DNA of 64,000 bases. Source: Marsupella aquatica (lineage: Eukaryota; Plantae; Marchantiophyta). Below, piece by piece: positions 6,695 to 50,711 of this stretch. Below the pieces are notes generated by a model that saw nothing but the letters and a program-made list of their open reading frames with translations, did no database searches and was not told the DNA's origin. The stretch's first letter is position 1; each line of letters opens with the position of its first letter. Position numbers and translations under genes: made by a program. The DNA lies in contig OZ316894.1 of NCBI GenBank assembly GCA_973895155.1, positions 26,962,340 through 27,026,339 of the forward strand, written 5' to 3'.

Positions 6695-6699
6695 ACCTC

Positions 6700-8930: not shown

Positions 8931-11900
8931 TTTTGTGCGTCCCATGGCTCCCTAAACCCAAGAAACCCCCCACTCAAGCTGATTCCCGCAGGTTTCGCGC
9001 TTGGTGAGGCCGTTTCCGCGGCTTTTAGCGGCATGGGACGCTGCTAACCTTCTACTACTACTATTAACATTTACACACATATACTGGACAGATCCTTCAT
9101 CGGGTCATGAGATACGTAGCTGGCCTAATCTAGGCCTTCCCTTGTCTTCCCCTCCGTCTTGTTAGGTATGTTTGGATTCCGCCGCTGGAATGATCCCCAA
9201 TAGGCTTGGTTAAGCCGCTAAGACCTCTCTCAGCTCGACACATCCAACTCTCACTCCCCTACTTACTTTCCTTCCTCTATTAGTTGATGTGGGCACTCTT
9301 CACACAAGTTAATGCGACACACAAATAGCAAAATGACTCCTTTTGACTGAGTCATACCATGCACTTGCCATACAAACAGTACATCTCATACACAAGTTCT
9401 GCGAACTAAGCCGTGAGGCCAACTCTATTCAGCTCTTAGGCATGAGGAAACATGAATATACACAAGGGTCACTGTATGACTAACCGAGAGCTTCTCGTAC
9501 TACTTGATCCCAGCCCGGCTGGTGCAAACTAAAAACTTGCTAAAGAAGAGGCCCTGAGGTCCCCGCTGCCCAGGTACTTATCCTGGTAGTGGATCCGCCT
9601 AATTCTTTGCAGCGTAAGCCTAATCTATCCTACCTGAATCTACCTATGTACAGCGAGGCAGGAGCACAAGTGTTGCTCCTGCCAGTGGAACCGCAATCCC
9701 ACAAAGCTAAGTGTCAGGGCCGCTCCTGGTCCTGATCCTAATCCTAAACTTGGAGATCAGCGCCCGCCCTGCCCACTCACGCCTCCTCCCTCCACGTCCG
9801 CCCTTCCTAAAAGGAACGGCGCCCTTGCACCATCACGACACCGGTGGTGGATCCTCAATGGACGCCCCCAACGCTTCCTCCTCAGCCACTGCCGTAGGTT
9901 CGTTTCCTGACAGATTACCTGCCCTTGACTGAGTCAACTCTCCATCGGCCTGACTGGGTCCACCATCGGCATCGGCATCGGCTCGGGCATCATTCTCGGC
10001 TACGGCCTCAACCTCGGCTATGGTCTCCCCAGCTTGCTCAAGAGGCGGATCTGGGATATCGGCCTCATGATTGAGTAGTTCGGCTTGGGCCGCGCCATCC
10101 CCACCCTTGGTGATAGCGGGATCTATTGCCGTGTTCATGCCGGAGGTTGGTGCTGGGTCTACCTCCTTGGTCACCACGGCCAATGGAGTCGTATTACTAC
10201 TTGACCCTGAAGGTTTCCGCTTCTTCTTCTTTTCTGGTTCGGCAGCTGGTCCCTTCCCCTTCCCCCTTACTTTCGGCACTGGTGCAGGTGGTGCGGCTTG
10301 TTCTTCGGCCAGTACCACTCCTGGTAACTTGGTTGCCCCAATTGGAGTTGGGCCTGATGAAGACAAGCACTTAAATACTGCGGCTTGTTTCTTCAGCCGC
10401 TCTGTTTGGTTGTCGGCCCGCCGCTGTAGGTTCTCCATCTTCCTCGTGATTTCCTCCAACTCCTCTTGGGTCTCATCCAGGTCCTTGCACGCCTCCTCTA
10501 GCTCGTTTTTGGCTTCCTCCAATTCCCTCTTGGTGGTAGCCCCCTCCTCCCGGGTTGCTCTTAGCTCCTTGTCGAGCTCCGCTACGACCTCAGACTCCAT
10601 CTGGTTCATCTTGGCGTAAGTCTGATCGAGCATCTCGTCCTTCTCCCGTAGGTCGGCCTTGAAGCTGGCCGTTAGGGATGCAAGCTCCTGCTGTAGCGCA
10701 ATAATCCCTTGATAGGATTTCCCTAACTCGGCCTCCTTCTACTCAAGGGCTCCGCGGATTTTCTCAAGCTCCCCCTTCAACGCCCATTCCTTTCTTTGGG
10801 TCTCCGCCATGGCCCGGTTGTTGGCTGTTATGTGGGCCTCCTCTGCATTCCTCAGCTCCTTCTTCCACTTCTCCCTCTCTTTGATCGCGTCGGCCAATTC
10901 TCCCTGGGTCCGCGTCAATAGATTCTCGATCATCCGATTATCAGCCTGCGCGGTGTCCAACTGGCCCTGCATGATGTTCAGCTCATGCCGTTTAATCCGC
11001 AGCTCATCTTGGGCTTTCTTGGCCACCCTTAGATCTTTGATTTCGGCTTCCCTTTCCCTAAGCCGATGGATGACCTCGTCCTTCTTGCTTCTTTCCAAGG
11101 CCACCGCTTCTTCTAATTTGCGCTTCTCCAACATCTCCCTCTGGAAAAAGGGTCCCTGCTCCAACTCCCCAAATATGCTGAGCGCCAGTTCTCCACACAT
11201 CTCCCCGTACTCCATGGCTCTGTCTTTAGCATAGGTGGAGGAAGTAGAAGTCATCGGCATCATCCACCGCGGCCTCTGCTCCCAAGCCGTCTTGCGGATC
11301 TCTTCAATCGTGGCTAGACGTTTGCCTCCTTTTTCGGCTAGCCGCTTGATGTCCTCCGGCCAATCTCCTCCTGGCAAATCCTTTTCTCTAGCCAGGGCTG
11401 CCTCCTCTTCCTTCCTGATTCGCTCCTGAAATTCCTGCGCCGTCTGTTTTATGCCGTCAAAGCTCGGGGGAGCAACATCTGGTGGGGGAGACTCAGGGCT
11501 ACTCTGCTGGTTGGGGTCCCCTCGTACTACCCTTGGAAGTGTGGGGATAAACCGGCCACAGGTCCTTACTCCTGGAACGTGATGGTCCGACCCATAGCCG
11601 GAGTTATCATGGCTGCAGTCCTCCACTGCCTCCTCTACTTCTTGTACTTCCGGCTTCTTCCTCTTCTCTTCGTCCGTAGGAGCTTCAGGCAATTCTGCCT
11701 CAGATTCAGAGCTTGAGACTCCCACGTACATTCGAACACCCGGCTTGGATTTTGGCCTGATTCTCTCCTTGTCTCCAGTAGAGGGGTTTTCCCTTGTAAG
11801 CCGGTGTAGGCCTACCTCTGCAGCAGTGTCCTGCATTGTTGCCGTTGCCGTTGTCGTTGTCGTCGCCGATGCCGATCTCTTTTCTTTCTCCAGTAGTTTC

Positions 11901-13596
11901 AGCAGATTCTGCATGCCTGGTTGCTGCATCGGCAAGTCCTCCGTCCTTGGCCTAAACACCTGCTCGATCGTAGGGCTAACAGGTGGCTGAGGCTTCTCTG
12001 CTACCGGCCTCGGTGCTGGAGCTTCCTCGGGTGCCCTTACCTGCAGGGGAAGTACTGGGGCAAAGGTCTGACCTCTGGCATACCGGCACAACAGCGGCAT
12101 GTGATAGCCAAGCCGCGACACACTCCCCATGCCGATTACCTGCTGCTCCTCCTTTAAGATCTTCTTCAATTGGTTGAGGAGGTACCCGTTGTAGTCCCGG
12201 CTTGGGTCTGGCCTCTCTGCCAGATAGACCTGTGCCTTGCCGATCTCTGGCCTCGGCAAGTTACAGTGCATGGTCACCTGCAAGAAGTCGATCATCTCTC
12301 CTATGTGTGGGTTGGTGCAGGTGTTCCGGAAGAAGCCATTCTTTGTTGATGGCCCGGGGAACGACCGGAACTCCTTGTCAGCTAGGCAAGGTCTTCCTGG
12401 TATCTACTTTGGTCTTATTGCCTATCGGCAAGCCAAACACTTCAGCAATCACCTTGGGAGTAAGATAGAAATCCTTCCCATATATCCTCGTGCAGTTGGT
12501 CTCGGGTTCCCATGACCCCATGAATTCTAATAGGTCTGAATCCGGTACCTCCGGCTTCAGCCATGGTAATCTTACAAAGGCCTCTAAGCCGGATCCGGCC
12601 ATGAAGCCTTGGTACTTCTTGGTCTGCATGGCCGTAAAGCATGCATCCTCCTCCCGTGCAAAATGTAGTTGCACCTCCACCGGTAGGGTTGCCGCCCAGC
12701 GCTTCCAGGTGTCATCCCTGGTTGGAATGGCGTTAATGGGATCGACCTCCTCCACTTCGGCTTCTCCTTCTCTCCTGCTCTGCTGCTCGGCTGGCTTCTT
12801 TGGTGCCGCCGACCTCGTTCTTTTTGCCGGGGTGGCTTCCTCGTTGACGGCTCCCTTCCTCTTCATCTCTGCTGCCGTGGAGGTTTCTCCTAGCACCGTT
12901 GCCTGGGTCCACCTTTCCGTGCTACCCTTCAATTCCCAGTGTATGTCGTTGCAGTTCTTGATGGCCTCTCGGATGCCGACGACGCTGTCTTTGCAAAACA
13001 GAAGATCGTCGAGTTAATTGGAAGTAGGAGTCCACAAGAACTCATCCTTGATGAGTTCGCCTCCTAAGAAAGCCGTCTTCTGCAGCTCCCACAATCGAGC
13101 GAGCTCCTGCCGTTCTCGAGCTGCCCTTTCTGATTCCTCGTCCTCGTAAGTCTTGATGTACTCAGTTGCCCGTTCGAACAGGCATCCCCAAAAATGTGCC
13201 GCTTGATTGACGTTGCTCATACCCTCCCTAGGTCGATCGTCGGTATCTATTCTCTCCCCGAGTGCTTGCCTAAGCAGCTGACAGTAGTTGGCCTCCCGTA
13301 GTCGTCTGCCAAGTTCGTGCTCACAAATGAGCCACCATCTCCTGCAAGCGCTCCTTACCCCTCTTCTCTTCCGGTCCTTCCTCCCGTTGATCCTTCCTAG
13401 CCGCCGACGCTTAGCGCGCCCTAACCCTAATCGAGTTTTTACCCACAGCGTCCTTACCTCCGGCCTCGGCCCGGGTTCCATGGTTGCCCCTAATTGTTTA
13501 TATTTTCCTTGTTTTGTCCCTATACTAAGGTGTTTCTAAGGTGCATTCCTGCTTTACCCACTTAACTGGCCGAGTGATTCCTGGCTAGGCATCACA
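8931..13596 (-). mobile_element. Solo LTR (4666 bp) of the giant-LTR Gypsy family
   Basis: Reverse-complement match over its length to the LTRs at 31687-35997 and 41973-46632. It starts TGTGATGCCTAG on the minus strand at 13596. 5-bp TSD CACAC at 8926-8930 and 13597-13601. No gag/pol adjacent. Confidence 0.93.
9833..13481 (-). pseudogene. LTR-encoded ~1210-aa ORF (solo-LTR copy), disrupted
   Basis: ORF pieces 13014-13481, 12378-12932, 10739-12295 and 9833-10633 join once TAA (13014), a 4-bp insertion (~12381) and TAG (10739) are corrected using the other LTR copies. Confidence 0.85.
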
Positions 13597-31686: not shown

Positions 31687-34600
31687 TGTGATGCCTAGAC
31701 AGGAATCACTCGGCCGGTTAAGTGGGTAAAGCAGGAAGGCACCCTAGGAACACCTTAGTATAGTGACAAAACAAGGAAAATATAAACAATTAGGGGCAAC
31801 CATGGAACCCGGGCCGAGGCCGGAGGTAAGGCTAAGGGTGAAAACCCGATTAGGGTTAGGGCGCGTTAAGCGTCGGCGGCTAGGAAGGATCAACGAGAAG
31901 AAGGACCGGCAAAGGAGAGGGGTAAGGAGCGCTTGCAGGAGATAGTGGCTCATTTGCGAGCACGAACTAGGCAGACGACTACGGGAGGCCAACTACTGTC
32001 AGCTGCTTAGGCAAGCACTCGGGGAGAGAGTAGATACCGACGATCAACCTAAGGAGGGTATGAGCAACGTCAATCAAGCGGCACATTTCTGGGGATGCCT
32101 GTTCGAACGGGCAACTGAGTACATCAAGACTTACGAGGACGAGGAATCAGAAAGGGCAGCTCGAGAACGGCAGGAGCTCGCTCGATTGTGGGAGCTGCAG
32201 AAGACGGCTTTCTTAGGAGGCGAACTCATCAAGGACGAGTTCCAGTGGACGCCTACTTCCAATCAACTCGACGATCTTCTGTTTTGCAAAGACAGCGTCG
32301 TCGGCATCCGAGAGGCCATCAAGAACTGCAACGACATACACTAGGAATTAAAGGGTAGCACGGAAAGGTGGACCCAGGCAACGGTGCTAGGAGAAACCTC
32401 CACGGCAACAAAGATGAAGAGGAAGGGAGCCGTCAACGATGAAGCCACCCCGGCAAAAAGAACGAGGTCGGCGGCACCAAAGAAGCCAGCCGAGCAACAG
32501 AGCAGGAGGCAGGGAGAAGCCGAAGAGGAGGAGGTCGATCCCATCAAGGCCATTCCAACCAGGGATGACACCTGGAAGGGCTGGGCGGCAACCCTACCGG
32601 TGGAGGTGCAACTACATTTTGCACGGGAGGAGGATGCATGCTTTACGGCCATGCAGACCAAGAATACCAAGGCTTCATGGCCGGATCCGGCTTGGAGGCC
32701 TTTGTAAGATTACCATGGCTGAAGCCGGAGGTACCGGAGTCAGACCTATTAGAATTCGTGGGGTCATGGGAACCCGAGACCAATTGCACGAGGATATATG
32801 GGAAGGATTTCTATCTTACTCCCAAGGTAATTGCCGAAGTGTTTGGCCTGCCGATAGGCAATAAGACCAAAGTTGATACCAGGAAGACCTTGCCTGACAA
32901 GGAGTTCCGGTCGTTCCCCGGGCCATCAACGAAGAATGGCTTCTTCCGGAACACCTGCACCAACCCGCACATAGGAGAGATGATCGACTTCTTGCGGGTG
33001 ACCATGCATTGTAACTTGCCGAGGGCAGAGATCGGCAAGGCACAGGTCTATCTGGCATCGGCAACAACAACGGCAACGGCAACAATGCAGGACACTACTA
33101 CAGAGGTAGGCCTACACCGGCTCACAAGAGAAAACCCCTTTGCTGGAGACAAGGAGAGAATCAGGCCGGAATCCAAGCCAGGTGTTCGAATGTACGTGGG
33201 AACCTCAAGCTCCGAATCTGAGGCAGAATTGCCTGAAGCTCCTACCGACGAAGAGGAGAGGGAGAAGCCGGACGTCCAAGAGGTAGAGGAGGCAGTGGAG
33301 GACTGCAGCCATGATAATTCCGGCTATGGGTCGGACCATCACGTTCCAGGAGTAAGGACCTGTGGCCGGTTTGTCCCCACACTTCCAAGGGTAGTGCGAG
33401 GGGACCCCAACCAGCAGAGTAGCCCTGAGTCTCCCCCACCAGATGTTGCTCCCCCGAGCTTCGACGGCATAAAACAGACGGTGCAGGAATTTCAGGAGCG
33501 AATCAAGCAGGAGGAGGAGGCCGCCCTGGCTGAGGAAAAGGATTTACCAGGAGGAGATTGGCCGGAGGACATCAGGCGGCTAGCCGAAAAAGGAAGCAAA
33601 CCTCTAGCCACGATTGAAGAGATCCGCAGGACGGCTTGGGAGCAGAGGCCACGATGGGCGATGCCGATCACTTCTACTTACTCCACCTACGCTAAGAATA
33701 GAGCCATGGAGTATGGTGAGATGTGTGGGGAACTTGCGCTCGGCATCTTTGGAGAGGAGTTGGAGGTAGGACCCTTTTTCCATAGGGAGCAGTTGGAGAA
33801 GCACCAATTAGAAGAAGCGGTGGCTTTAGAGAGAAGCAAGAAGGACGAGGTCATTCGGCGGCTTAGGAGGATGGAAGCCGAGATTGAAGATCTAAGGGCG
33901 GCCAAGAAAGCCCAAGATGAACTGCGGATTAAACGACATGAGCTGAACATCATGCAGGGGCAGTTGGACACCGCGCAGGCTGATAATCAGAATATCAAGG
34001 ATAAACTGACTCAGACGCAGGAAGAGTTGGCCGACACGATCAAAGAGAGGGAGAAGTGGAAGCAAGAGCTGAAGAATACAGAGGAGGCCCACATAACAGC
34101 CAACAGCCGGGCCATGGCGGAGACCCAAAGAAAGGAATGGGCGTTGAAAGGGGAGCTCGAGAAAATCCGCGGAGCCCTTGAGCAGAAGGAGGCCGAGTTA
34201 GGGAAATCCTATCAAGGGATTATGGCGCTGCAGCAGGAGCTTGCGTCCCTGACGGCCAGCTTCAAGGCCGACCTAAGGGAGAAGGACGAGATGCTCGAAC
34301 AGACTTACGCCAAGATGAACCAGATGGAGTCTGTCATCATTGCAGAGCTCGACAAGGAGCTAAGAGCAACCCGGGAGGAGAGGGCTACCTTGAAGAAGGA
34401 ATTGGAGGAAGCCCACAGGGAGCAGGAGGAGGCCAAAAACGAGCTGGAGGGGGCACGTAAGGACCTGGATGAAACCCAAGAGGAGTTGGAGGAAATCACG
34501 AGGAAGATGGAGAACCTACAGCGGCGGGCCGACAACCAAACAGAGCGGCTGAAGAAACAAGCCGCAGTATTTAAATGCTTAGCTGCAGCAGGTCCATCTC

Positions 34601-35997
34601 CCGTTGGGACAAACCAGTTACCAGGGGTGGTAATTGCCGAAGGACAAGCCGCGCCACCTGCACCAGTGCCGGAAGTAAGTGGGAAGGGGAAGGGACCAGC
34701 TGCCGAGCCACCAACGAAGAAGAAGCGGAAACCTTCAGGGTCAAGGAGTAATACGACTTCACAGGCCGTGGTGATCAAGGAGGTAGACCCAGCACCGACC
34801 CCAGACAGGGTCACGGCTAAGGATCCAACTACCCTAGGGGAAGGGGAGGCCGAAGCCGAGGGAGTGGCCGAAGCCGAAGCCGTGGGAGTGGCTGAGGCCG
34901 AAGCCGTGGGTATTGCCGAGGCCGGTGTTGAGGCTGAAGTCGAAGGTGGACCCAGTCAGGCCGAGGGAGAGTTGACTCGGTCAAGGGCAGGTAATCTGTC
35001 AGTAGGCGGGCCAACGGCAGTGGCTGAGGAGGAAGTGTTGGGGGCGTCCATTGAGGATCCACCACCGGTGTCGTGACGGTGCAATGGCGCCGTTCCTTTT
35101 AGGGAGGGCGGACGTGGAGGGAGGAGGCGTGAGTGGGCAGGGCGGGCGCGGATCTCCACGTTTAGGATTAGGATTAGAACCAGGAGCGGCCCTGACACTT
35201 AGCTTAGTGGGATTGCGGTTCCACTGGTAGGAGCAACACTTGTGCTCCTGCCTTACTGTACATAGGTAGATTCGGGCAAGTAGATTACTGTCAGGTAGAT
35301 TAGGCTTACGATGCAAAGAATGGCGGATCCACTACCAGGATAAGTACCTGGGCAGCGGGGAGCTCAGGGCCTCTTCTTTAGCAAGTTTTTAGTTTGCACC
35401 AGCCGGGCTGGGATCAAGTAGTACGAGAAGCTCTCGGTTAGTCATACAGTGACCCTTGTGTATATTCATGTTTCCTCATGCCTAAGAGCTGAATAGAGTT
35501 GGCCTCACGGCTTAGTTCGCAGAACTTGTGTATGAGATGTACTGTTTGTATGGCAAGTGCATGGTATGACTCAGTCAGAATGAGTCATTTTGCTATTTGT
35601 GTGTCGCATTAACTTGTGTGAAGAGTGCCCACATCAACAGAAGGAAGGAAAGTAAGCAGGGGAGTGAGAGTTGGATGTGTCGAGCTGAGAGAGGTCTTAG
35701 CGGCTTAACCAAGCCTATTGGGGATCATTCCGACGACGGAATCCAAACATACCTAACAAGACGGAGGGGAAGACAGGGGAAGACAGGGGAAGGCCTATAT
35801 TAGGCCGGCTACGTATCTCATGACCCGATGAAGGATCTGTCCAGTATATGTGTGTAAAATGTTAATAGTAGTAGTAGAAGGTTAGCAGCGTCCCATGCCG
35901 CTAAGCCGCGGAAACGGCCTCGCCAAGCACGAAACCTGCGGGAATCGGCTTGAGCTGGGGGGTTTCTTGGGTTTAGGGAGCCATGGGACGCACCACA
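31687..35997 (+). repeat. 5' LTR (4311 bp), with a 348-bp in-frame internal deletion relative to the 3' LTR
   Basis: TGTGATGCCTAGAC...GGGACGCACCACA, near-identical to 41973-46632. The segment equivalent to 43344-43691 is missing at ~33057. Confidence 0.96.
31802..35076 (+). pseudogene. LTR-encoded ORF (5' LTR copy)
   Basis: Starts MEPGPRPEV. Stops at 31943 and 32342, a frameshift at ~32665, then an open 812-aa frame to 35076. Confidence 0.85.
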
Positions 35998-36001
35998 TTT
36001 T

Positions 36002-36019
36002 TGGCGCTAGATGGAGGGG
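36002..36019 (+). other. Primer binding site, tRNA-Asn-like
   Basis: TGGCGCTAGATGGAGGGG lies 4 nt after the 5' LTR. It is complementary with one mismatch to the plant tRNA-Asn 3' end as I recall it (...CCCCTCCTTCTAGCG-CCA). Confidence 0.7.
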
Positions 36020-36066
36020 GCATTTCTTAAGCCGTGAGATATGAAGTTAGAACGGAAGCGTAGGTA

Positions 36067-38679
36067 ATGACTGACCTTACGCCGAGGGAAGAAAGAGTGA
36101 TTCAACGGGAGAGAGCTCGACTGCAGCAGCTCGCCGGGTGGCATGATACACAGCGACTGAGAGGGGCAGAAAGAGCTGGTAGCTCCGAAACTGGAAGTGG
36201 CGTCGAAGAAGACATACCAGAAGAAGAGTCGGTAAGGAGAAGTGAGTCTACAACCGACATGGGGGAACCAGAGGCACGGCCAGACGAGAGGTCAGGGACC
36301 AGATTGAGCCAGCGGTCGCGCATACATTACAAGGCATTTCATGGGAGAGGAGATGAGGATCCGGACGAATGGTTGGATGATTTCGAGGGAACCGCTGCAG
36401 CAAATGGAGAATCGGCCATCAAGATGCAGATTCTTCCCGGCCTGTTCAAGGGTGAGGCTAGGCCTTGGTACAGAGCATTAGATGTGGAAGATCAAGCCAT
36501 CTGGGATATCTTCAAAACACTCTTTGTTAAGGAGTTTCGACCCATTGGAACTTCAGAACTAGCAGTGCTGAAGTTGGGACAACTTCGGTTCAAGGAGAAC
36601 AAATCCTTCAGAAAGTTCTTGCAACGCTTTCAGAAACTGGTAAGACGTACAAAGACCAATGCATCTGAAGGTATGCAACTTCAATGGTTGGTGAATGCTT
36701 TGCCACAGAAGATGAGTTTTGCAATTAGGAAGGAGAACCCGGAGACTTTAGCCGAAGCAATTAAGGATATTCAATTATACATTAATGCAGATATCACAAG
36801 CCGGAAGAAACAGCTTAAGTCTGAGAGTTCCTCATCAGAGGAGGGATCACCCCATAAGAAAAAAGATAAGAAGAAGAAACATTCCAAGAAGTCTAGAAGT
36901 GATAAGTCAAGCTCGGATAGTGGGAGTAGCAAGAGTGAGTCATCTTCTAGTTCTGAAGAAGAAAAAACTAGGAAAAGGAAGGGCAGAAGGAGAGGGAAGA
37001 CGAAAGTCAAGATGGAGGCTAAGCCACCAGATAACATCGTAGCCCTTACCGAGCAACTTAAGGCTATCATTGCAGAGGTAAAACCAAAGAAGAAGGTAGT
37101 ACAGGAGGATAGCTCTGTATGGTGTGCCTTATGTTATAAAACCGGACACCATAAAGATGCTTGTCCTAAGCTTAATACTAATCATGTTCGGCATGTGGCC
37201 GAGATCAGACCATGTCAGGGAGAAGTAGAGTACTTTTTAGGAGATGCCGCTGATAGTGTTTTCGGCATCAGTGAGATTGGAGCACGAGACCTATCCAACA
37301 GACCTGCATCTCTGTGGTCAGGGTTAAGGAACAATCCAGGAGAGATGTATCCTCGGATTATTCAGAACCCGTCAGTACCTCCTAGGCCGAATGTGCAAAG
37401 ATTTGCGGCGTGCTATAATTGTGGTCAACCTGGCCATTTTGCTAGAGAATGCCCGAATGCACGCAAATAGGGTGATGGACAACCAGCTCAGCTATGTATG
37501 GGATGCCGACAGGAAGGTCATATGCTAGGGCAATGTCCTACTTGGTTGGCAGGCCTGGCCGCAAATCATAAGCTTTTGCCGATCAAGATCTTACCGCCAG
37601 GTACTACCCCCGGAGGAGTTCAAATCAACCACATCGAACTAGGATGGCAAGAGGATGCCGAGGCAGAGTTCGTACCATCTGATGATGAGGCCGAAGCCCT
37701 ATCAACCTTCTCAGAGGAGGATTTAGATCATGATTGCTATCGGGTCTCTACTCGATCTACCAGAAGGAAGGAAAGGTGGGATGGGCTGGCCAAAAATAAA
37801 GGGAAGGTTACGGAGGAAAGGATCGACTCTTCGTCAACATCAACAGAAGGAGAAGGGAGGGCTCCGGCAATACAGGTAAGCCATGAGCCCACCAGTGAAA
37901 CCAATCCTTCACAAGATAGCGACTTCAATCGAGATCATCCTAAGTTGTTCTACCCCTCTGTTACGGCTAGTGTTAAGGAACAACTAAGAGAATTAGAAAC
38001 CCTGGAGAATACCGAAGCCATTGCCAAAGATGTAAAACGAGCAAAAGCATTGTTTGCTTCGGAAGACCCAACAGCTGTGGAGACTAGCGTGGCAAAACTG
38101 GCCGAATCCAAGGAAACACCACCAGAGGAGAAGCCGATTGTTCCCTATGACCTGGCTAAAGATGTACTAGAATCTAGAGTCTCGGCAACAGTAGGTCAAC
38201 TATTGAAAAATAGCCCGTACTTCCGGAAGCAATTAAGGAAGGCTATTCTCGGCAAGCCGAGATTACCCAAGGTAGCAACCAGATCCGACGTACTAATGAT
38301 AGAAGAAGATCAAGGAGCCCCAGCATTACCATTAATGATTCAAGGAGAATTATTACTACAGGTACCCATCGATGGAGGATCAGGGGTATGTATTATGATT
38401 GATTCAACAGCAAAAGGGTGGGGTCTAACACCGGAGATGACTGGAAGAGTGTTGAACATGGCCAATGGATATCAGGTCATTCCTACGGGAGTGTTAACCG
38501 GCATCAAGACAGAGATAGGAGGTATCTTCTTTAGCATTAACTATGTAGTAATGAAGCCGGTAAACCCTACGTCATTCCGACTATTGATTGGTAGGCCATG
38601 GCTGTACCTAGCCGAGGTAATAGAAGATTGGGGTAAAAAGCAGTTCACTTTCGGGACCCCCTCTATCACAGTATCCTAG
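36067..38679 (+). pseudogene. gag: gag with three CCHC knuckles, plus aspartic protease
   Basis: FHGRGDEDPDEWLDDF...FKGEARPWY capsid motif. Knuckles CALCYKTGHHKDAC, CYNCGQPGHFAREC and CMGCRQEGHMLGQC. Protease IDGGSG and LLIGRPWL. In-frame TAG at 37468 and 38677. Confidence 0.92.
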
Positions 38680-38963
38680 GACACTAAGGATGACCGTAGG
38701 AAAAGCATAAGGGAAGTAGATGGGTACGACAGTGGACTGGAGTCAGCCGATGAAGTACGTTGGTTAGAATGCCTCACTAACCTAACCGAAGAAGGTGTCT
38801 TTGGACCAGAGGTACCCCCCAGCGGATTATGGCAAGAACCAATGGAAGGTGACTTGGAAGAAGAAGACGAAGAGGTCGAGGACTGCTTTACAATAGAATC
38901 CACCTTTTTAGCTGCAATTCCGGAGGAAGTAAAGGATGTAGACCAATTGGATGAAACGGCTAA

Positions 38964-41900
38964 GTGGGGAGCAGTAGCAGGGACAATGAATTTTCTGCAG
39001 GCGTTGTGGTAGAGCCGGCAGGGTTCACAACGCCATCGATCATCGGCAAGGAACTAAATACCAAGGGATCGGCATACAAGCCGATTACAAGGGCAGAACA
39101 AATTGAGGCCCTATTAGAAGCCGAGAGAGCACAGCGGCCTAACTCTCAGGAGCAAGAGGTGGATGAGATGGACAGACACGATCTAGAGCCAAGGCAGGAA
39201 GGGGAGCCGACCACTAATTCAAAACCGAATAGACCGGTAAGGGGACAATCTATGGACACCAAGGAAGGGACCGACTCGGCTAGTCCAGCCGAAATCCCAG
39301 TTTATGGAGGTATGAGATTAGAGAGACTGGAAGCCGAACTGGACCCGAATTTGAAGAAGCAGATTAATATGATCCAAGCACGGCAATATCGGAAGCTCGA
39401 CTTAGGAGAGGGAAGAGAACTGAACTTAGGGAGAAACCTAGCACCTGAGCTCGAGAAAGAGATTAGTGACTTATTGATTGAATTTCAGGATGTGTTTGCA
39501 TGGAGTCACCAAGATCTAAAGGGAGTAGATCCAACACTAGGGGAACATCGAATTGATCTCATGTTAGGAGCCAAATCATTCCGACAACCAATTCGAAGGA
39601 TGAACCCGAAGTATTCCCTGCTGGTCAAAACAGAAATCGACAAACTAGTGGAAGCTGGATTCATCACTCCAGTCCTGCATTCAGACTGGGTGTCTCCAAT
39701 TGTGATAGTTCCCAAGAAAGCTGGACCCGATGGTAAAACCAAGATCCGGGTTTGTCAGGATTACAGGAAGCTGAATGAAGCAACATTAAAAGACCATTTT
39801 CCTTTACCGTTTACTGATATGGTACTAGACATGGTAGCCAGTCATGAACTATATTCATTCATGGATGGATACTCTGGTTATAACCAAATCAGGATTCGGC
39901 AGGAAGACCAAATCAAGACGGCCTTCATCACGGAATGGGGGATCTATGTCTTCAATCGTATGCCGTTTGGACTCTGCAACGCACCAGCTATGTTCCAACG
40001 ATTAATGGTGAACATTTTTCATGATTACTTGAGAAAGTTCATGGAAATCTTCATTGATGACTTTGCAGTATTCGGGAAGGCATCGAAACATGCTAAATAC
40101 CTCAGGAAAACCTTCATAAGATGTAGAGAGGTGGGTCTCAAGTTACACCCAGATAAATGTTTTTTTGCAGTAACCGAGGGGGTGCTACTAGGTCACAAGG
40201 TATCAAGGAAGGGCATTGAGATTGACAAAGATAAGCTAGCAGTATGGCTAGATATCATGCAACCTAAGAACATAAAGGATGTAAGATCCTTCTTGGGATG
40301 CATTGGTTACTGTCGCCGGTTCATCAAGGATTTTGCCAAGCTAGCTTTACCATTAACCAATATGCTCAAGGCAGGAGCAGACTTCGAACCCACACCCGAA
40401 CGAGTCACAGCGGTGGTAGAATTGAAGCAGATGTTAGTAGAGGCCCCAGTCATGATAGCACCGGACTGGAACAAAGATTTTCATGTTTTTGTAGATGTCT
40501 CGGGCTTCTGTATTGGCTCAGTACTAAGTCAGTTGGATGAGAAAGGAAGGGACCATCCCATATACTTCGCAAGCCGTCAGCTTGCCGATGCCGAACGGAA
40601 CTACTCTACCACGGAAAGAGAAGCATTAGGAGTCATTTATTCTTGTAAAAAGTTTAGGCATTATTTACTAGGGTACAAGGTAATCTTTCATACTGATCAT
40701 GAAAGTTTGAAGTACCTAGTCAATAAGCCGGACCTTACAGGCAGAGTAGCAAGATGGATTTTGCTATTACAGGAGTTTGACTATGAGCTGAGGATCAAGC
40801 CGGGAATCAACGGCACGATTCAAAGATGTTTGGAAAAGAGAGAGGTAAAACGAGTCCTACGGGCCATGCATGGAGAGGAGGCCGGAGGACATTTTGCCCC
40901 AGTAACCACGTCTAAGAAGATATTAAATGCCGGTTACTGGTGGCCCACCTTGCACAAAGATGTCTATCAGTTTATCAAACAATGCGATCCTTGTCAATGA
41001 GCGGGAGGACCAAGGGCGTCCACCAGGCATCCACTGCACCCTATTCTACCTCTGGCACCATTCGAGAAGTGGGGTATTGATTACATTGGACCTCTGAAAC
41101 CACTGACCCACCCTCGACGGAACAAGTACATAATCCCGGCTACGGATTATGCAACTAAATGGGTAGAGGCCAGACCAACAACGAAGGATGATGCAATTAC
41201 TACGGCTAGATTCATGTATGAGCAGATCTTCACCAGGTATGGAGCACCCCTAGAATTAGTTAGTGATAGAGGAACCCATTTTTTGAATGATATAATTAGT
41301 CGTTTAAATGAGCAGTATTTAGTTAAACATAGGCCTACTACTCCCTACCATCCAAAGGCAAACGGGTTGACAGAACGAGCAAACGGAATTATAGGAAAGA
41401 TATTGAACAAGACAGTAGCTCAGAACAAACTCGATTGGGATGATAAATTGTTTGCTGCTGTTTTTGCTTACAATCTTGCCTATAAATCCACTACCGGTCA
41501 TACACCCTTCTTCTTAACCTTTGTACAAGAAGCCCTGGTACCCATGCAACTTGAGATACCGACATTTCAAGTTACAATTGAGGAAAGAGCCTCAGCGGAG
41601 GAGAGCCTAAAGGAGCGAGAATATAGGTTAGAAGCTTTAGAGGAAGTGAGAATGATTTCAGCCGAGAGAGTAGAATATAGACAGAATATCATGAAGCAGC
41701 AGTATGATAAAAGGTTAAAAGTAGTTAGTATTCATACCAGTGATCTTGTGCTACTTTATGGCAGTAGGTATAGTAGGTTTCCAGGAAAGCTTTACACTCG
41801 CTGGTTAGGACCCTTTAGAGTAACCATGATGTTCCCCAATGGCTCCGTACAATTGGCCAACATTACGGGAGAGGTATATCCAGTTCGCATCCATTATGAC

Positions 41901-41984
41901 CGCCTCAAGAAATACTATATGGACGAAGATGAAGTTGTTCGCGAGGACACTTCACAATTAAGTGGGGAGCTATGTGATGCCTAG
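38964..41984 (+). pseudogene. pol: pol: reverse transcriptase, RNase H, integrase
   Basis: WVSPIVIVPKK, DYRKLN, DGYSGYNQI, MPFGLCNAP, FIDDF. RNase H DVSG..IGSVLSQ and YSTTEREALG. Integrase H..H/CDPC, LVSDRGTHF, YHPKANGLTER, WLGPF. TGA at 40998 and an apparent deletion after IKPG (~40805). Confidence 0.96.
41960..41972 (+). other. Polypurine tract
   Basis: AAGTGGGGAGCTA directly precedes the 3' LTR TG and lies inside the last integrase codons. Confidence 0.75.
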
Positions 41985-44900
41985 ACAGGAATCACTCGGC
42001 CGGTTAAGTGGGTAAAGCAGGGAGGCACCCTAGGAACACCTTAGTATAGTGACAAAACAAGGAAAATATAAACAATTAGGGGCAACCATGGAACCCGGGC
42101 CGAGGCCGGAGGTAAGGCTAAGGGTGAAAACCCGATTAGGGTTAGGGCGCGTTAAGCGTCGGCGGCTAGGAAGGATCAACGGGAAGAAGGACCGGCAAAG
42201 GAGAGGGGTAAGGAGCGCTTGCAGGAGATAGTGGCTCATTGGCGAGCACGAACTAGGCAGACGACTACGGGAGGCCAACTACTGTCAGCTGCTTAGGCAA
42301 GCACTCGGGGAGAGAGTAGATACCGACGATCAACCTAAGGAGGGTATGAGCAACGTCAATCAAGCGGCACATTTCTGGGGATGCCTGTTCGAACGGGCAA
42401 CTGAGTACATCAAGACTTACGAGGACGAGGAATCAGAAAGGGCAGCTCGAGAACGGCAGGAGCTCGCTCGATTGTGGGAGCTGCAGAAGACGGCTTTCTT
42501 AGGAGGCGAACTCATCAAGGACGAGTTCCAGTGGACGCCTACTTCCAATCAACTCGATGATCTTCTGTTTTGCAAAGACAGCGTCGTCGGCATCCGAGAG
42601 GCCATCAAGAACTGCAACGACATACACTAGGAATTAAAGGGTAGCACGGAAAGGTGGACCCAGGCAACGGTGCTAGGAGAAACCTCCACGGCAGCAAAGA
42701 TGAAGAGGAAGGGAGCCGTCAACGATGAAGCCACCCCGGCAAAAAGAACGAGGTCGGCGGCACCAAAGAAGCCAGCCGAGCAGCAGAGCAGGAGGCAGGG
42801 AGAAGCCGAAGAGGAGGAGGTCGATCCCATCAAGGCCATTCCAACCAGGGATGACACCTGGAAGGGCTGGACGGCAACCCTACCGGTGGAGGTGCAACTA
42901 CATTTTGCACGGGAGGAGGATGCATGCTTTACGGCCATGCAGACCAAGAATACCAAGGCTTCATGGCCGGATCCGGCTTGGAGGCCTTTGTAAGATTACC
43001 ATGGCTGAAGCCGGAGGTACCGGAGTCAGACCTATTAGAATTCGTGGGGTCATGGGAACCCGAGACCAATTGCACGAGGATATATGGGAAGGATTTCTAT
43101 CTTACTCCCAAGGTAATTGCCGAAGTGTTTGGCCTGCCGATAGGCAATAAGACCAAAGTTGATACCAGGAAGACCTTGCCTAACAAGGAGTTCCGGTCGT
43201 TCCCCGGGCCATCAACGAAGAATGGCTTCTTCCGGAACACCTGCACCAACCCGCACATAGGAGAGATGATCGACTTCTTGCGGGTGACCATGCATTGTAA
43301 CTTGCCGAGGGCAGAGATCGGCAAGGCACAGGTCTATCTGGCAGAAAGGCCAGACCCAAGCCGGGACTACAACGGGTACCTCCTCAACCAATTGAAGAAG
43401 ATCTTAAAGGAGGAGCAGTAGGTAATCGGCATGGGGAGCGTGTCGCGGCTTGGCTATCACATGCCACTGTTGTGCCGGTATGCCAGAGGTCAGACTTTTG
43501 CCCCGGTACTTCCCCTACAGGTAAGGGCACCCGAGGAAGCTCCAACGCCGAGGCCGTTGGCTGAGAAGCCTCAACCACCTGTTAGTCCTACGATCGAGCA
43601 GGTGTTTAGGCCCAGGAAGGAGGACTTGCCGATGCAGCAACCAGGCATGCAGAGTCTGCTGAAACTACTGGAGAAAGAAAAAAAATCGACATCGGCAACA
43701 ACAACGGCAACGGCAACAATGCAGGACACTACTACAGAGGTAGGCCTACACCGGCTCACAAGAGAAAACCCCTTTGCTGGAGACAAGGAGAGAATCAGGC
43801 CGGAATCCAAGCCAGGTGTTCGAATGTACGTGGGAACCTCAAGCTCCGAATCTGAGGTAGAATTGCCTGAAGCTCCTACCGACGAAGAGGAGAGGGAGAA
43901 GCCGGACGTCCAAGAGGTAGAGGAGGCAGTGGAGGACTGCAGCCATGATAATTCCGGCTATGGGTCGGACCATCACGTTCCAGGAGTAAGGACCTGTGGC
44001 CGGTTTGTCCCCACACTTCCAAGGGTAGTGCGAGGGGACCCCAACCAGCAGAGTAGCCCTGAGTCTCCCCCACCAGGATGTTGCTCCCCCGAGCTTCGAC
44101 GGCATAAAACAGACGGTGCAGGAATTTCAGGAGCGAATCAAGCAGGAGGAGGAGGCCGCCCTGGCTAAGGAAAAGGATTTACCAGGAGGAGATTGGCCGG
44201 AGGACATCAGGCGGCTAGCCGAAAAAGGAAGCAAACCTCTAGCCACGATTGAAGAGATCCGCAGGACGGCTTGGGAGCAGAGGCCACGATGGGCGATGCC
44301 GATCACTTCTACTTACTCCACCTACGCTAAGAATAGAGCCATGGAGTATGGTGAGATGTGTGGGGAACTTGCGCTCGGCATCTTTGGAGAGGAGTTGGAG
44401 GTAGGACCCTTTTTCCATAGGGAGCAGTTGGAGAAGCACCAATTAGAAGAAGCGGTGGCTTTAGAGAGAAGCAAGAAGGACGAGGTCATTCGGCGGCTTA
44501 GGAGGATGGAAGCCGAGATTGAAGATCTAAGGGCGGCCAAGAAAGCCCAAGATGAACTGCGGATTAAACGACATGAGCTGAACATCATGCAGGGGCAGTT
44601 GGACACCGCGCAGGCTGATAATCAGAATATCAAGGATAAACTGACTCAGACGCAGGAAGAGTTGGCCGACACGATCAAAGAGAGGGAGAAGTGGAAGCAA
44701 GAGCTGAAGAATACAGAGGAGGCCCACATAACAGCCAACAGCCGGGCCATGGCGGAGACCCAAAGAAAGGAATGGGCGTTGAAAGGGGAGCTCGAGAAAA
44801 TCCGCGGAGCCCTTGAGCAGAAGGAGGCCGAGTTAGGGAAATCCTATCAAGGGATTATGGCGCTGCAGCAGGAGCTTGCGTCCCTGACGGCCAGCTTCAA

Positions 44901-46632
44901 GGCCGACCTAAGGGAGAAGGACGAGATGCTCGAACAGACTTACGCCAAGATGAACCAGATGGAGTCTGTCATCATTGCAGAGCTCGACAAGGAGCTAAGA
45001 GCAACCCGGGAGGAGAGGGCTACCTTGAAGAAGGAATTGGAGGAAGCCCACAGGGAGCAGGAGGAGGCCAAAAACGAGCTGGAGGGGGCACGTAAGGACC
45101 TGGATGAAACCCAAGAGGAGTTGGAGGAAATCACGAGGAAGATGGAGAACCTACAGCGGCGGGCCGACAACCAAACAGAGCGGCTGAAGAAACAAGCCGC
45201 AGTATTTAAATGCTTAGCTGCAGCAGGTCCATCTCCCGTTGGGACAAACCAGTTACCAGGGGTGGTAATTGCCGAAGGACAAGCCGCGCCACCTGCACCA
45301 GTGCCGGGAGTAAGTGGGAAGGGGAAGGGACCAGCTGCCGAGCCACCAACGAAGAAGAAGCGGAAACCTTCAGGGTCAAGGAGTAATACGACTTCACAGG
45401 CCGTGGTGATCAAGGAGGTAGACCCAGCACCGACCCCAGACAGGGTCACGGCTAAGGATCCAACTACCCTAGGGGAAGGGGAGGCCGAAGCCAAGGGAGT
45501 GGCTGAAGCCGAAGCCGTGGGAGTGGCTGAGGCCGAAGCCGTGGGTATTGCCGAGGCCGGTGTCGAGGCTGAAGCCAAAGGTGGACCCAGTCAGGCCGAG
45601 GGAGAGTTGACTCGGTCAAGGGCAGGTAATCTGTCAGTAGGCGGGCCAACGGTAGTGGCTGAGGAGGAAGTGTTGGGGGCGTCCATTGAGGATCCACCAC
45701 CGGTGTCGTGACGGTGCAAGGGCGCCGTTCCTTTTAGGGAGGGCGGACGTGGAGGGAGGAGACGTGAGTGGGCAGGGCGGGCGCGGATCTCCACGTTTAG
45801 GATTAGGATTAGAACCAGGAGCGGCCCTGACACTTAGCTTAGTGGGATTGCGGTTCCACTGGTAGGAGCAACACTTGTGCTCCTGCCTTACTGTACATAG
45901 GTAGATTCGGGCAAGTAGATTACTGTCAGGTAGATTAGGCTTACGATGCAAAGAATGGCGGATCCACTACCAGGATAAGTACCTGGGCAGCGGGGAGCTC
46001 AGGGCCTCTTCTTTAGCAAGTTTTTAGTTTGCACCAGCCGGGCTGGGATCAAGTAGTACGAGAAGCTCTCGGTTAGTCATACAGTGACCCTTGTGTATAT
46101 TCATGTTTCCTCATGCCTAAGAGCTGAATAGAGTTGGCCTCACGGCTTAGTTCGCAGAACTTGTGTATGAGATGTACTGTTTGTATGGCAAGTGCATGGT
46201 ATGACTCAGTCAGAATGAGTCATTTTGCTATTTGTGTGTCGCATTAACTTGTGTGAAGAGTGCCCACATCAACAGAAGGAAGGAAAGTAAGCAGGGGAGT
46301 GAGAGTTGGATGTGTCAAGCTGAGAGAGGTCTTAGCGGCTTAACCAAGCCTATTGGGGATCATTCCGGCGGCGGAATCCAAACATACCTAACAAGACGGA
46401 GGGGAAGATAGGGGAAGACAGGGGAAGGCCTATATTAGGCCGGCTACGTATCTCATGACCCGATGAAGGATCTGTCCAGTATATGTGTGTAAAATGTTAA
46501 TAGTAGTAGTAGAAGGTTAGCAGCGTCCCATGCCGCTAAGCCGCGGAAACGGCCTCGCCAAGCACGAAACCTGCGGGAATCGGCTTGAGCTGGGGGGTTT
46601 CTTGGGTTTAGGGAGCCATGGGACGCACCACA
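41973..46632 (+). repeat. 3' LTR (4660 bp)
   Basis: TGTGATGCCTAGAC...GGGACGCACCACA, a direct repeat of the 5' LTR. Confidence 0.96.
42088..45711 (+). pseudogene. LTR-encoded ORF (3' LTR copy)
   Basis: Same protein. Stops at 42229, 42628 and 43419; frameshifts at ~42951 and ~44076. Confidence 0.85.
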
Positions 46633-47469: not shown

Positions 47470-48225
47470 TCACTCTCTCCCACCTTTGCTAAGCATACAT
47501 CTCCGCTGAATCTTGGAGGGCCAGGCCTCAAAAATATCAAAGTCCCAAGCATTCTGTCGCTTCCCTCTAGCTACTGATTCCAGAAGCCAATCAGGGGAAA
47601 GCACCCAAAGATTGTTGTTCATGACAAAATCACGCACTGTTGTCTTAAAGAATTTTCTGCATATTTTCATGTATGACAGACCTACAACATGAGTGGAGGT
47701 TTCTGTTAGACTCTCCTCCACTGTCCCACCTAGCTCAACAACTATAGACTTGTACAGTCTGCACTTAGTCTCCCCAATTCCTTCTTCTGCAAATACCACA
47801 CTGAACCCCTTCATAATGGTATTTCTCTCCTTGCCATGCTCATTCAATATAGCATCTGCACGCATAGGATGGTGTCCTATGTTGACAACAGGTCCATATT
47901 GGACAGAAGCAAAGTTGGGTTTCTCTGCCGCTGCTTCATAGGCTTCCTTTTCAGCCAAAGCCTCTGCAGTGGCCTCCTCACTCTCCCACAACTCATATTG
48001 CTCAGTACTCTGTACACACCTATGTTTAACAGAATCGGTCAGCCAAGAGACTTCAACTACTTTTAGACCTTGGTTGGTAATGGCAGAAACAATGAAGGAC
48101 CATGACCACTTGTTCATCACATCCAGCCATGTCCCCGCAACAACATGTGTAGTCTGTGGAGTGATGTCCTTGACTTCAGTCCCATGGAACTCTGAGAATC
48201 GTTTTTGTACGATTGGCCAACTCAC
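47470..48225 (-). CDS. Tandem BRCT protein, similar to the plant DNA polymerase lambda N-terminal BRCT; start uncertain
   Basis: Two units: ITPQTTHVVA...VVEVSWLTDSV and MKGFSVVFAEEGI...IVVELGGTVEESLTETSTHVVG...VLSPDWLLESVARGKR. Confidence 0.8.
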   Translation of the reverse strand: MSWPIVQKRFSEFHGTEVKDITPQTTHVVAGTWLDVMNKWSWSFIVSAITNQGLKVVEVSWLTDSVKHRCVQSTEQYELWESEEATAEALAEKEAYEAAAEKPNFASVQYGPVVNIGHHPMRADAILNEHGKERNTIMKGFSVVFAEEGIGETKCRLYKSIVVELGGTVEESLTETSTHVVGLSYMKICRKFFKTTVRDFVMNNNLWVLSPDWLLESVARGKRQNAWDFDIFEAWPSKIQRRCMLSKGGRE

Positions 48226-48911
48226 TTGGGTGAACCCTAAACCCTAAACCCTAAGCTTTGATTCCAGCCAACAGAGGCGGGTGGTCAACCTTTGTACGTT
48301 TCCTAGAGGCCATGTACACACGGGCCACCTAATCACTGCAGACCGGAAGATAATGCGTTCACCTGATAATCGGAGGGCCCTTAAAATGCTGCGTTTATAA
48401 CTTGGTCCAGTCCAGTCGTCTGGTGAGTCTCTGCTCCGATTCCAAATGGGAGAAATATTGGGACAAACGTACTAGACACCTGCAAGCATGCACCTCATAG
48501 TTTGAATATGTGCCTTCACAATATTGAAGGTGACAAGTGCAATTGTTTTGTGATGCCACATACAGATGTTGTAAATGGGCAGACATTCAATGAGAATACA
48601 AAATGTTGGTACACTTTAAGGGAATTCTCGCAAATTAAATAGCCTTGTAACTTATATGCTCATAATGAGAAGTCCTGATTTAATTTAAGCATTGTCATGT
48701 AAGTCGTGATCAAAATGATTGCAGAGTTAAAAAAGTTCCTAGAAGGCTTAAGGGCAGTTTTTGAAGGCATGTACCCAGGAACAAGTAATGAACTTAGGGT
48801 ACTTGTTGCCTAAGCATCCTCTCCTACAGAGGTCCTTCTTCTCAAAATTGGAATGTCTGCAATCTCCAAGGTATCCACATCAGGTGCACTATGCATGTAT
48901 ATTATTCAGGT

Positions 48912-49592
48912 TCAAAGCCAAGAAATGTGATCTCTCATGGGAGTGTGCAAAGTAGGATCTATGGCATGGCGATGACAATAGAAGATCCATCGATCAACAC
49001 CATGTGCAGAGTGATCATAGATGTGTCTGTCACAAGCATAGCCTTCTGCTTGACGCTCCTTCAAACAATGAAAGTGCCACATGGTGGGACACCTAACACA
49101 GTGGACTATGTCCACCCAGAAATCTTCATCGTGCTGACCACATGCCTTGCACTTATGAAGTGGGCAAGCTGTGGCAAGATCGGGAAAACATGAAAAACAA
49201 AAGAACCTCACACAATATCTGTCAGGGCATTTCCTAACAAGTGGTGGAGCATCAACAGAGCCCTCATAAGACCCCAACTTCCCACACTGTGCACACTTAG
49301 CCTGCTTCTCCAAACAATCAGTGCACATCCAGCCTCCCTGGTGTGCTGACGGGAGGCCCACCCCTGGACAGTTGTTTTCTGCAGCAAGGTCAGACTCCGG
49401 GTTGAGGTGGAAATGCCTCATGCAAGGGCCCTCACATATGGCTAAGCCACCACCATCGTCACAAATGGCACAACAATGAGCTGCCTTCTGGAAAATCTGA
49501 CTTGCGGAGAAGTTACTACCATCTGGCCCAACTACACCTGTGTTGCTCACCTCTGTCCCCCGCTTCTTGGCTCGGATTTTAGGGCGTGCCAT
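48912..49592 (-). CDS. Stand-alone EDM2/NSD-type composite PHD finger protein (226 aa)
   Basis: CAICDDGG.L..CEGPCMRHFH, CTDC....KCAQCGKLGS, CPLHKC..C, CVRCP..WH..CL, FYCHRHAIDPTLHTPMRDH follow the EDM2 PHD cluster in order. Intact ORF with a basic N-terminus and a splice-acceptor-like site just before the ATG. Confidence 0.88.
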   Translation of the reverse strand: MARPKIRAKKRGTEVSNTGVVGPDGSNFSASQIFQKAAHCCAICDDGGGLAICEGPCMRHFHLNPESDLAAENNCPGVGLPSAHQGGWMCTDCLEKQAKCAQCGKLGSYEGSVDAPPLVRKCPDRYCVRFFCFSCFPDLATACPLHKCKACGQHDEDFWVDIVHCVRCPTMWHFHCLKERQAEGYACDRHIYDHSAHGVDRWIFYCHRHAIDPTLHTPMRDHISWL

Positions 49593-50261
49593 GCCTACGC
49601 ATGAGACAGATAGTACAATTTAGCAGAGTGCACGGACAATACAATTTAGTGCAGTGTACAAAAAGTACAGTGTAGCATATAGACTAGAGTGGCAATTGCT
49701 ACTGCAATGAAATGTTCACACACATGTGCAGAGTAGACATACTTTTTGGTTTGTTGAGCCCACACTAAAAACTGATCCCCTCGTACAATAGCTCCACCTA
49801 CACCTCAATTTTGTGGCTATGATTCACCAAAGGAGATCTGCAACAAGATTTAATGCATTTGAATCACATATAACAGTCGTGACATGTAAAACAGGCATTT
49901 TTTGAACAGGATTGGTATCAAGCACTGTGATCAGGGTTGTAATTTATACATCCTAAATAGGCTATGATAGTGAATGAGACAAATAAGTTAGGCAGAAATC
50001 ACTTTTTCCAGGTTATCACATGGCCCATTAATTCCAGTCTTTGAAAGGAGACTTTTAAGTGAGCTTGCTAGCCTCTTAAATTAGGATATTGTACTTAGTG
50101 CAGCCATAATAGGATAAGTTATGTACTGTTGACCCTAAACCCTGGACCCAAAATTGGTCATAATTCAAAATCTTAAGTAAATATCCTCTCTGTTCAAGTC
50201 AAAGTGTTAAGTTATAGGTCAATGGTCTCTGGTTTGTGCATGCGGTGTGACAAGTGGTCCT

Positions 50262-50711
50262 CTAGAGCGTGTGATCCAAACATGTGTAGACACCAAAGTG
50301 ACCGGTGGTGGGGTCTGGGAGGGCAGGACAAGTGACATCGCCAGGCACACTGCAGGATGGCGAGTGGTTCCAGATGATACATTGTGCTCTGTGAAAAAAC
50401 CGACATCCAAGAGAACGGTCATCCAACTCTAGGCCAGAAGCCCTATAGGCAGGACAGTCATATTGGCAACTGTGCACACACCCTTGGGCCCTAATTTGTG
50501 GCGGGTCATGTATGAGAGACAGAAATACCAAGGATGTTGGGAAGGGTGGAGAAGCAGGTACAGGCCGGCTGTAGTTGTTCCTGGCAACAACTGGGTACTC
50601 AAAGTACCATGCAGACTGGGCTGGAAGGATCCCAAGTCTGACATACTCAAGGCGCAACATCTCTGCCTTGCGTGCAAGCCGCACATGTTCAGCGTTGCGG
50701 GTCCTCACCAT
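50262..50711 (-). CDS. Small Cys/His-rich hypothetical cargo protein
   Basis: 149-aa ATG-started ORF on the same strand as neighbouring cargo genes. CVHSCQYDC, CRFFHRAQC, HSPSC...C...H....C..H. Confidence 0.45.
   Translation of the reverse strand: MVRTRNAEHVRLARKAEMLRLEYVRLGILPAQSAWYFEYPVVARNNYSRPVPASPPFPTSLVFLSLIHDPPQIRAQGCVHSCQYDCPAYRASGLELDDRSLGCRFFHRAQCIIWNHSPSCSVPGDVTCPALPDPTTGHFGVYTCLDHTL

Follow-up and report, generated by a model that had tools for sequence, protein, structure and literature searches.

VANC proteins, according to the cited parts of the work on Arabidopsis VANDAL elements, bind short words that have accumulated in their own transposon and that differ between families (PMC5735166); VANC21 has a coiled coil, and VANC is presented as confined to dicots and descended from MAIN-like proteins (PMC13547354). 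In the passages cited here, the extra open reading frames (ORFs) of plant long terminal repeat (LTR) retrotransposons lie in the internal region and are of unknown function (PMC7264820, PMC4408406, PMC11728184), so that what they do is an open question (PMC7264820, PMC6317226); moss Tat-like elements are reported in one of these passages without extra ORFs (PMC4408406), and LTRs of up to ~5–6.5 kb are known and treated as non-coding (PMC6317226, PMC6431247). The element analyzed here, a Ty3/gypsy retrotransposon with a 4.66-kb LTR, lies in a stretch of 64,000 nucleotides (the window) from the liverwort Marsupella aquatica (GCA_973895155.1, contig OZ316894.1, positions 26,962,340 to 27,026,339, forward strand). 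Most of its LTR is occupied by an accessory gene that almost certainly is or was functional. The reading preferred here, with a probability of about 0.55, is that this gene encodes a nuclear DNA-binding protein of VANC/PMD fold that recognizes a CpG-containing word particular to its family and shields the element from silencing.

A gene within the long terminal repeat

The 5′ and 3′ LTRs flank gag and pol in a full element of 15 kb (Table 1), with the polypurine tract (PPT) ending 3 nt ahead of the 3′ LTR, and they differ by 23 substitutions over 4,311 aligned bases in addition to the 348-bp deletion and a 1-bp insertion. The primer-binding site (PBS) is one that we take to be of the tRNA-Asn type. 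A family LTR length of 4.66 kb is confirmed by the solo copy with its 5-bp target-site duplication (TSD), and is supported by contigs from public sequencing runs that pass into unrelated sequence at precisely 41973 and 46632, among them an independent contig (run X8) that begins at 41973 with an unrelated flank. No perfect TSD flanks the full element (ATAAC / CAACT, a 3/4 match if the TSD is 4 bp). Contig depth over the LTR is 3–4 times that over pol (runs X1 and X2), which additional solo LTRs would fit, depth being no copy number.

The integrase stop codon (41982–41984) lies inside the 3′ LTR, which three integrase codons thus enter; the PPT (41960–41969) is read as part of integrase in this element, and the polyprotein (36067–41984) fills nearly the whole interior (35998–41972), leaving no 3′ spacer. 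The accessory frame runs in the sense direction from an ATG at LTR nucleotide 116, with a TATA-like box 21 nt ahead of it, to a stop (45709–45711) common to the three copies, and its 3,624 nt, aligned in 1,211–1,215 codon columns, make up 77.8% of the LTR. The non-coding parts total 1,036 bp, and the 921-bp tail is likely to hold the main promoter, R and U5. The sag protein of mouse mammary tumor virus (MMTV) is roughly four times shorter than this accessory protein. In all these respects the sequence-only reading of the window was right: it had placed an LTR at 41973..46632, which self-comparison and alignment reproduce, held that the family LTR is no shorter, located the integrase stop inside the LTR and the PPT inside integrase with no 3′ spacer, and described one sense ORF of ~1200 codons starting 115 bp into the LTR and filling ~78% of it.

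Table 1. Features of the element and of its solo LTR in the window
Feature	Position	Strand	Details	Basis
3′ LTR	41973..46632	+	4,660 bp, TG...CA	self-BLAST, alignment
5′ LTR	31687..35997	+	4,311 bp, 348-bp in-frame deletion	
Solo LTR	8931..13596	-	5-bp TSD at 8926-8930 and 13597-13601	
PBS	36002..36019	+	begins TGG, 4 nt past 5′ LTR	
gag (capsid, CCHC) and protease frame	36067..39009	+	two internal stops	
Reverse transcriptase-RNase H-integrase frame	38964..41984	+	one internal stop; ~80-codon in-frame deletion near 40800	
Conserved ~45-nt cassette	41936..41979	+	upstream motif, PPT (41960-41969), LTR start	
Accessory frame, 3′ LTR	42088..45711	+	~1,210 codons; breaks at 42229, 42628, 42950, 43419, 44076	
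Accessory frame, 5′ LTR	31802..35076	+	three breaks in common with 3′ LTR, and the deletion	
Accessory frame, solo LTR	13481 to 9833	-	three breaks: 13016, ~12382, 10741	
Globular domain, remotely VANC/DUF1985/PMD-like	42951..43500	+	most constrained part, dN/dS 0.11	
Long coiled-coil region	44400..45200 (approximate)	+		sequence; sub-threshold coiled-coil Pfam matches
KKKRK	45352..45366	+		sequence
Non-coding LTR tail	45712..46632	+	921 bp	
CpG word AAGCCG/TGCCGA	35998..46632	.	55 sites in 10.6 kb	

The accessory frame is broken in all three copies in the window. Two stops (42229, 42628) and one frameshift (42950, in 3′ LTR numbering) are common to the 5′ and 3′ LTRs, and the gene was therefore already dead when the element inserted; the breaks at 43419 and 44076 are private to the 3′ LTR. 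The earlier statement that the three copies carry different lesions thus holds for the private breaks of the 3′ and solo LTRs, but not for the three that the paired LTRs share. Gag-pol of this element is itself broken by three stops and the ~80-codon deletion.

Comparison of the 3′ LTR with the solo LTR shows nevertheless that the accessory frame was under purifying selection. The ratio of nonsynonymous to synonymous rates (dN/dS) is 0.37 (confidence interval 0.29–0.48) over 1,188 codons, with 0.11 in codons 290–450 and 0.76 in the acidic tail, and 0.28 over codons 1–1060, where third positions hold 104 of the 202 differences. In 500 permutations that keep trinucleotide context, used as the neutral reference, dN/dS averaged 0.62 and did not fall below 0.43, compared with the observed 0.28; purifying selection in the past is thus what the dN/dS comparison suggested by the sequence-only reading gives. 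Along the gene, synonymous divergence climbs from 0.085 to 0.28, whereas only 3.6% of the non-coding tail has diverged, which probably means mosaic copies or a constrained tail. The 5′ and 3′ LTR frames differ from each other by 12 nonsynonymous and 3 synonymous changes. Family contigs were examined in 8 of 15 public runs, and the figures on breaks come from the four best, which bear four organism codes and may include the source of the window: at each of the three stops of the 3′ LTR, 96–100% of contig depth carries another letter (4/4 runs), and contigs free of each of the two 3′-LTR frameshifts are present in every one of the four. The breaks are thus mostly peculiar to the copies in the window.

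Position of the gene in related elements

The domain order GAG-PR-RT-RH-INT between LTRs, with PBS and PPT, is that of Ty3/gypsy, and the element is a non-chromovirus member of that group, not shown to be Athila or Tat. Integrase ends ~20 residues past the GPY/F region with no chromodomain or CR motif after it, and Pfam gives no chromodomain match. Archaeal-type RNase H (aRH), the domain looked for as a sign of Tat, is missing from P0012, the nearest relative (tether of ~80 aa), and from the window element, whose deletion falls at the aRH place. No sense extra ORF of the Athila kind lies between pol and the 3′ LTR, there being no 3′ spacer, and angiosperm reverse transcriptases (RTs) form a separate long branch in a tree built without a curated Athila reference. 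By RT the best matches are metagenome proteins (74%), the best named ones come from Riccia sorocarpa (59–60%), and angiosperm proteins reach 39–51%; the element is probably that of a bryophyte. Like Phygy the element has a polyprotein spanning nearly the whole interior; it is 15 kb long, with an extra gene and a 5-bp solo-LTR TSD, where Phygy elements are short, have no extra ORF and use an NCGN site.

Relatives were taken as the best 80 of 389 metagenome loci by integrase alignment. A hidden Markov model (HMM) of the accessory family, built solely from downstream ORFs of these loci (40 pieces from 39 loci), matches the window domain at E 6e-6, the best reversed decoy reaching 0.057 (321 targets), and homologues with open frames of 630–1,190 codons occur in the relatives. 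The ~45-nt cassette was found in 7 of the 80 loci. In six (L002, L003, L004, L006, L007, L008) it stands directly after integrase, as in the window, and the gene follows it in five, L003 ending too early. In L002 and L008 the bases past the PPT are an inverted repeat of the 5′ LTR end (9/9 and 10/11), which confirms the LTR start there; for L004, L006 and L007 the LTR-borne call rests on layout, with the LTR end unverified. These sister families end integrase ahead of the cassette, so translation of the PPT within integrase in the window element is incidental. In the seventh locus, L005, the cassette (84% identical over 45 nt to that of the window) follows the gene and precedes an LTR of 1.3 kb, and another PPT-like run stands at the integrase end; a relative with the gene outside a short LTR, which the sequence-only reading had proposed looking for, thus exists. 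In L074 and L079 the gene and pol form one continuous frame, with a PPT after the gene, and in 13 further loci the LTR begins after the gene. The tally is 16 internal to 5 LTR-borne, the rest of the 80 being uncallable.

In a tree of RT and integrase (29 hand-chosen rows: 19 loci, nine proteins and the window) the window clade joins the LTR-borne clade (ultrafast bootstrap 78), the L005 clade comes next (100) and the other internal-type relatives fall outside, from which the internal layout is, on these sequences, likely to be ancestral. It is somewhat probable that the cassette was relocated in an ancestor shared with the sister clade. That ancestor would have had the order integrase, gene, PPT cassette, short LTR; recombination would then have set the cassette ahead of the gene, and with plus-strand synthesis starting upstream of it the gene would have become U3. 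The places of the cassette in the window and its relatives suit a move by recombination more readily than a mere change to a spare PPT. The earlier proposal that a PPT shift pulled the gene into U3 keeps its direction, from internal to LTR, which is likely, while the thing moved appears to be a ~45-nt cassette and a plain shift fits less well.

Several results weigh against a single origin of the layout. The integrase-only tree does not resolve it, in a tree of the accessory domain (17 rows) a group of the window with L002/L004/L006/L007 is rejected (approximately unbiased test, p 0.04), and no relic cassette was found behind the window gene, the best score there being reached by 120 of 300 shuffles. 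The domain tree and the missing relic also speak for a gene captured separately, inserted from another family into the U3 of a short LTR with no cassette move in a common ancestor, an origin that is unlikely but deserves to be kept in view. The helical N-terminal part of ~290 residues that is extra in the window protein, with no match in the Atlas, would suit such a capture, as would the total of non-coding LTR sequence, which is near the 1.3 kb of the L005 LTR. The window branch in the domain tree is long (2.0), however, which makes that test unreliable, and the sister clade by RT and integrase has the same layout. A separate capture would in any case concern origin only and is compatible with the function proposed below.

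Further observations concern the cassette and plus-strand priming. The cassette at 41936–41979 recurs in runs X7 and X12 on many contigs that are unrelated in other respects, and so counts as a cis-element conserved between families and between species codes. In L005 (3757 and 6560) and L074 (7002 and 9827) the internal gene has a PPT-like run on either side; the upstream run lacks a TG start and may serve as a central PPT from which a long plus strand is made. L074:765-9740 is a single gag-pol-accessory frame of 2,992 codons that reads through the spare PPT-like run, and L079:1-4710 is also fused. Thirteen loci lack a purine tract at the apparent LTR start (L013:6162, L022:4442, L023:8461, L029:9928, L038:5016, L040:8822, L044:5470, L045:5485, L050:11171, L052:9205, L055:6447, L067:8697 and L068:10310) and have there instead a near reverse complement of the PBS seen in eight loci of the relatives' group, a pattern that would suit priming of the plus strand from a second tRNA site in inverted orientation.

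The protein, a CpG word and a proposed function

The basic N-terminus, long coiled coil, KKKRK and acidic tail that had been noted earlier are all present in the protein, and KKKRK is likely, from its sequence, to be a nuclear localization signal. No transmembrane segment of the env kind was found in three pieces spanning the frame (maximum 19-residue hydropathy 0.98). The globular part had been called PMD/Transposase_32-like, which stands at most as a remote likeness and not as a Pfam match on any piece: PMD, Transposase_32 and DUF1985 exceed the gathering score in 0/24, 0/18 and 0/6 relevant proteins, the best being Transposase_32 on L074 (E 0.09). A possible remote likeness to PMD/Transposase_32/DUF1985 is suggested by profile (hhalign E 0.0018, probability 15%) and by features (Atlas 0.85–0.90), and the predicted fold of a relative's domain may remotely resemble VANC (PDB 9LNK), at 10% identity; structure and Atlas separately point to the VANC/DUF1985/PMD group. 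Foldseek gave no match in PDB or BFVD, and none of the sequence searches of PDB produced a match below E 0.05. A word-based protein search and a metagenome scan with the domain returned 0 of 60 candidates and 0 of 384 stretches because the relatives are less than 20% identical, and an alignment search gave 13 homologues, none with a Pfam label.

The word AAGCCG/TGCCGA, dense in the element, occurs at 13 sites in the remaining ~44 kb of the window, where no element copies lie. It tops the ranking in the interior and in the LTR separately and is spread over gag, pol and LTR; in coding DNA it occurs 47 times, compared with a mean of 15.2 and a maximum of 24 in 300 synonymous-codon shuffles, a comparison that gives no clean p-value as the word was picked from the data. 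A motif search of the non-coding tail alone is borderline, the signal emerging only element-wide. Other words mark other families (TCCGGA in L002 and L006, CCCGAA in L074, GTCGAC in L079), each above all of 200 shuffles, and neither TCCGGA nor GTCGAC is in excess in the window. L035, the single negative control, lacks the domain and the three tested words. Elsewhere in the window, 20000–31600 has another CpG word, ACGTCG (19 compared with 1.2 expected), near a weak match to an En/Spm-type transposase (28904–29566), and is perhaps another transposon with its own word.

In the proposed mechanism the main transcription start would lie within the 921-bp tail, and the gene would be expressed either from the 3′ LTR, through an RNA of subgenomic length, or by a short promoter lying within the initial 115 bp. 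The protein, oligomerizing through its coiled coil, would enter the nucleus, bind the word and act in trans, and such action would explain the insertion of an element whose own copy was dead; every solo LTR would retain both gene and target words. That the bryophyte gypsy lineage as a whole runs VANC-like anti-silencing, with its own protein and CpG word in each family and, in the branch with the gene in its LTR, solo LTRs acting in trans, is a more tentative extension. Four results speak against the anti-silencing reading: L013, L044 and L050 have the gene and no strong CpG word, the L005 word fails to beat codon shuffles, integrase lacks the word, and CpGs in the motif are only marginally better kept (p 0.09).

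The families with a gene and no strong word would also be at home with a real gene of another function, such as integration targeting, nuclear import of the particle or RNA handling, the word arising from a host factor or mutation context. The remoteness of the fold link and the in-frame fusion to integrase in L074 and L079, reminiscent of targeting domains, lend this some weight, but words that vary between families, and from that of a neighboring region of the same genome, together with the agreement of structure and Atlas, make it rather unlikely. A dead passenger, captured once and copied merely as part of the LTR, might be suspected from three broken copies out of three, from an inserted element that carried a dead gene and from the neutral pattern of difference between its LTRs; the selection described above, the near absence of the stops from family contigs in four runs and the open homologues in relatives make it highly improbable and, for the lineage's past, largely refute it. 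That the 4.66-kb repeat arose in assembly, or consists of a short LTR together with a duplicated piece of the interior, is scarcely credible, for although the full element lacks a perfect TSD, the solo copy has one, the ends are TG...CA with PPT and PBS directly adjacent, no second PPT cassette was found, contigs join other DNA exactly at both ends, and L002 and L008 have the same layout.

Neighboring features and comparison with described systems

An open 623-codon frame at 4210–6081 (minus strand), next to GC-rich tandem repeats at 6490–6810, resembles the accessory frame in layout, with a globular part, coiled coil, KKKK and acidic end; it matches neither the family HMM nor Pfam and is possibly the accessory gene of another element. 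An open 650-codon frame at 16454–18406 (plus strand) contains 5.6 copies of a 189-bp coiled-coil repeat and does not match the family HMM, the upstream piece 16250–16450 scoring E 0.34; by eye its start resembles the C-terminal half of the domain family. Exon-like pieces at 47470–56538 (minus strand) match BRCT, NSD-type PHD and SET and are probably a host histone methyltransferase gene that starts less than 1 kb away from the element's 3′ end. An open 428-codon frame at 62206–63492 (minus strand) has no Pfam match.

A search of the open-access literature, with subscription papers outside its scope, found neither a plant retrotransposon whose LTR holds an entire gene nor a VANC-like retrotransposon protein. 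Annotation tools take LTRs as non-coding, and a survey that seeks extra ORFs only next to the polyprotein might record such elements as having none. An LTR boundary would here have passed an entire gene, and both layouts persist within one lineage. The case can be tested directly, since it supplies a defined domain, a candidate target word for each family, and pairs of families that naturally differ in their words. If the lineage-wide extension of the anti-silencing reading is true, VANC-type systems, so far those of DNA transposons in dicots, would also take in retrotransposons and early land plants, long-unexplained extra ORFs of plant retrotransposons would gain a function, and solo LTRs, normally inert debris, would be units of gene and target together, able to hold off silencing of the family in trans. 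If bryophyte retrotransposons do have a related fold, this would also bear on the origin of VANC.

Compared with described systems, as far as the cited parts of the sources go, the element shares with Phygy of Physcomitrium its non-chromovirus character and a polyprotein that fills nearly the whole interior, and shares none of its shortness, lack of extra ORFs or NCGN target preference (PMC6317226). In CRM group A, as here, the polyprotein frame extends into the 3′ LTR, but that LTR (0.3–1.2 kb) encodes the integrase tail, whereas the window LTR takes up three integrase codons and then a separate gene (PMC3059260). The extra ORFs of Ogre, Tat and Athila (PMD plus coiled coil, Transposase_28), likewise from non-chromovirus gypsy elements, pair a globular part with a coiled coil and a likely nuclear signal; they are described in the interior, either 5′ of gag or in the space separating pol from the 3′ LTR, and the window protein reaches no Pfam cut-off (PMC4408406, PMC6317226, PMC7264820). 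MMTV sag/naf in U3 is the counterpart for a whole accessory gene carried in the LTR, at both ends and in solo LTRs, although it belongs to a retrovirus, encodes an unrelated protein and has a demonstrated U3 promoter, that of the window element being putative (PMC9412291). From VANDAL/VANC the system differs in its host, a gypsy retrotransposon with the gene in its LTR and not MuDR, and in its words, which are dispersed through coding DNA and not in tandem in non-coding DNA; binding and demethylation by the window protein are putative, and identity is 10%. What it has in common with VANDAL/VANC is a possibly similar predicted fold in a relative's domain, a coiled coil and a short word specific to the family that differs between related families (PMC5735166).

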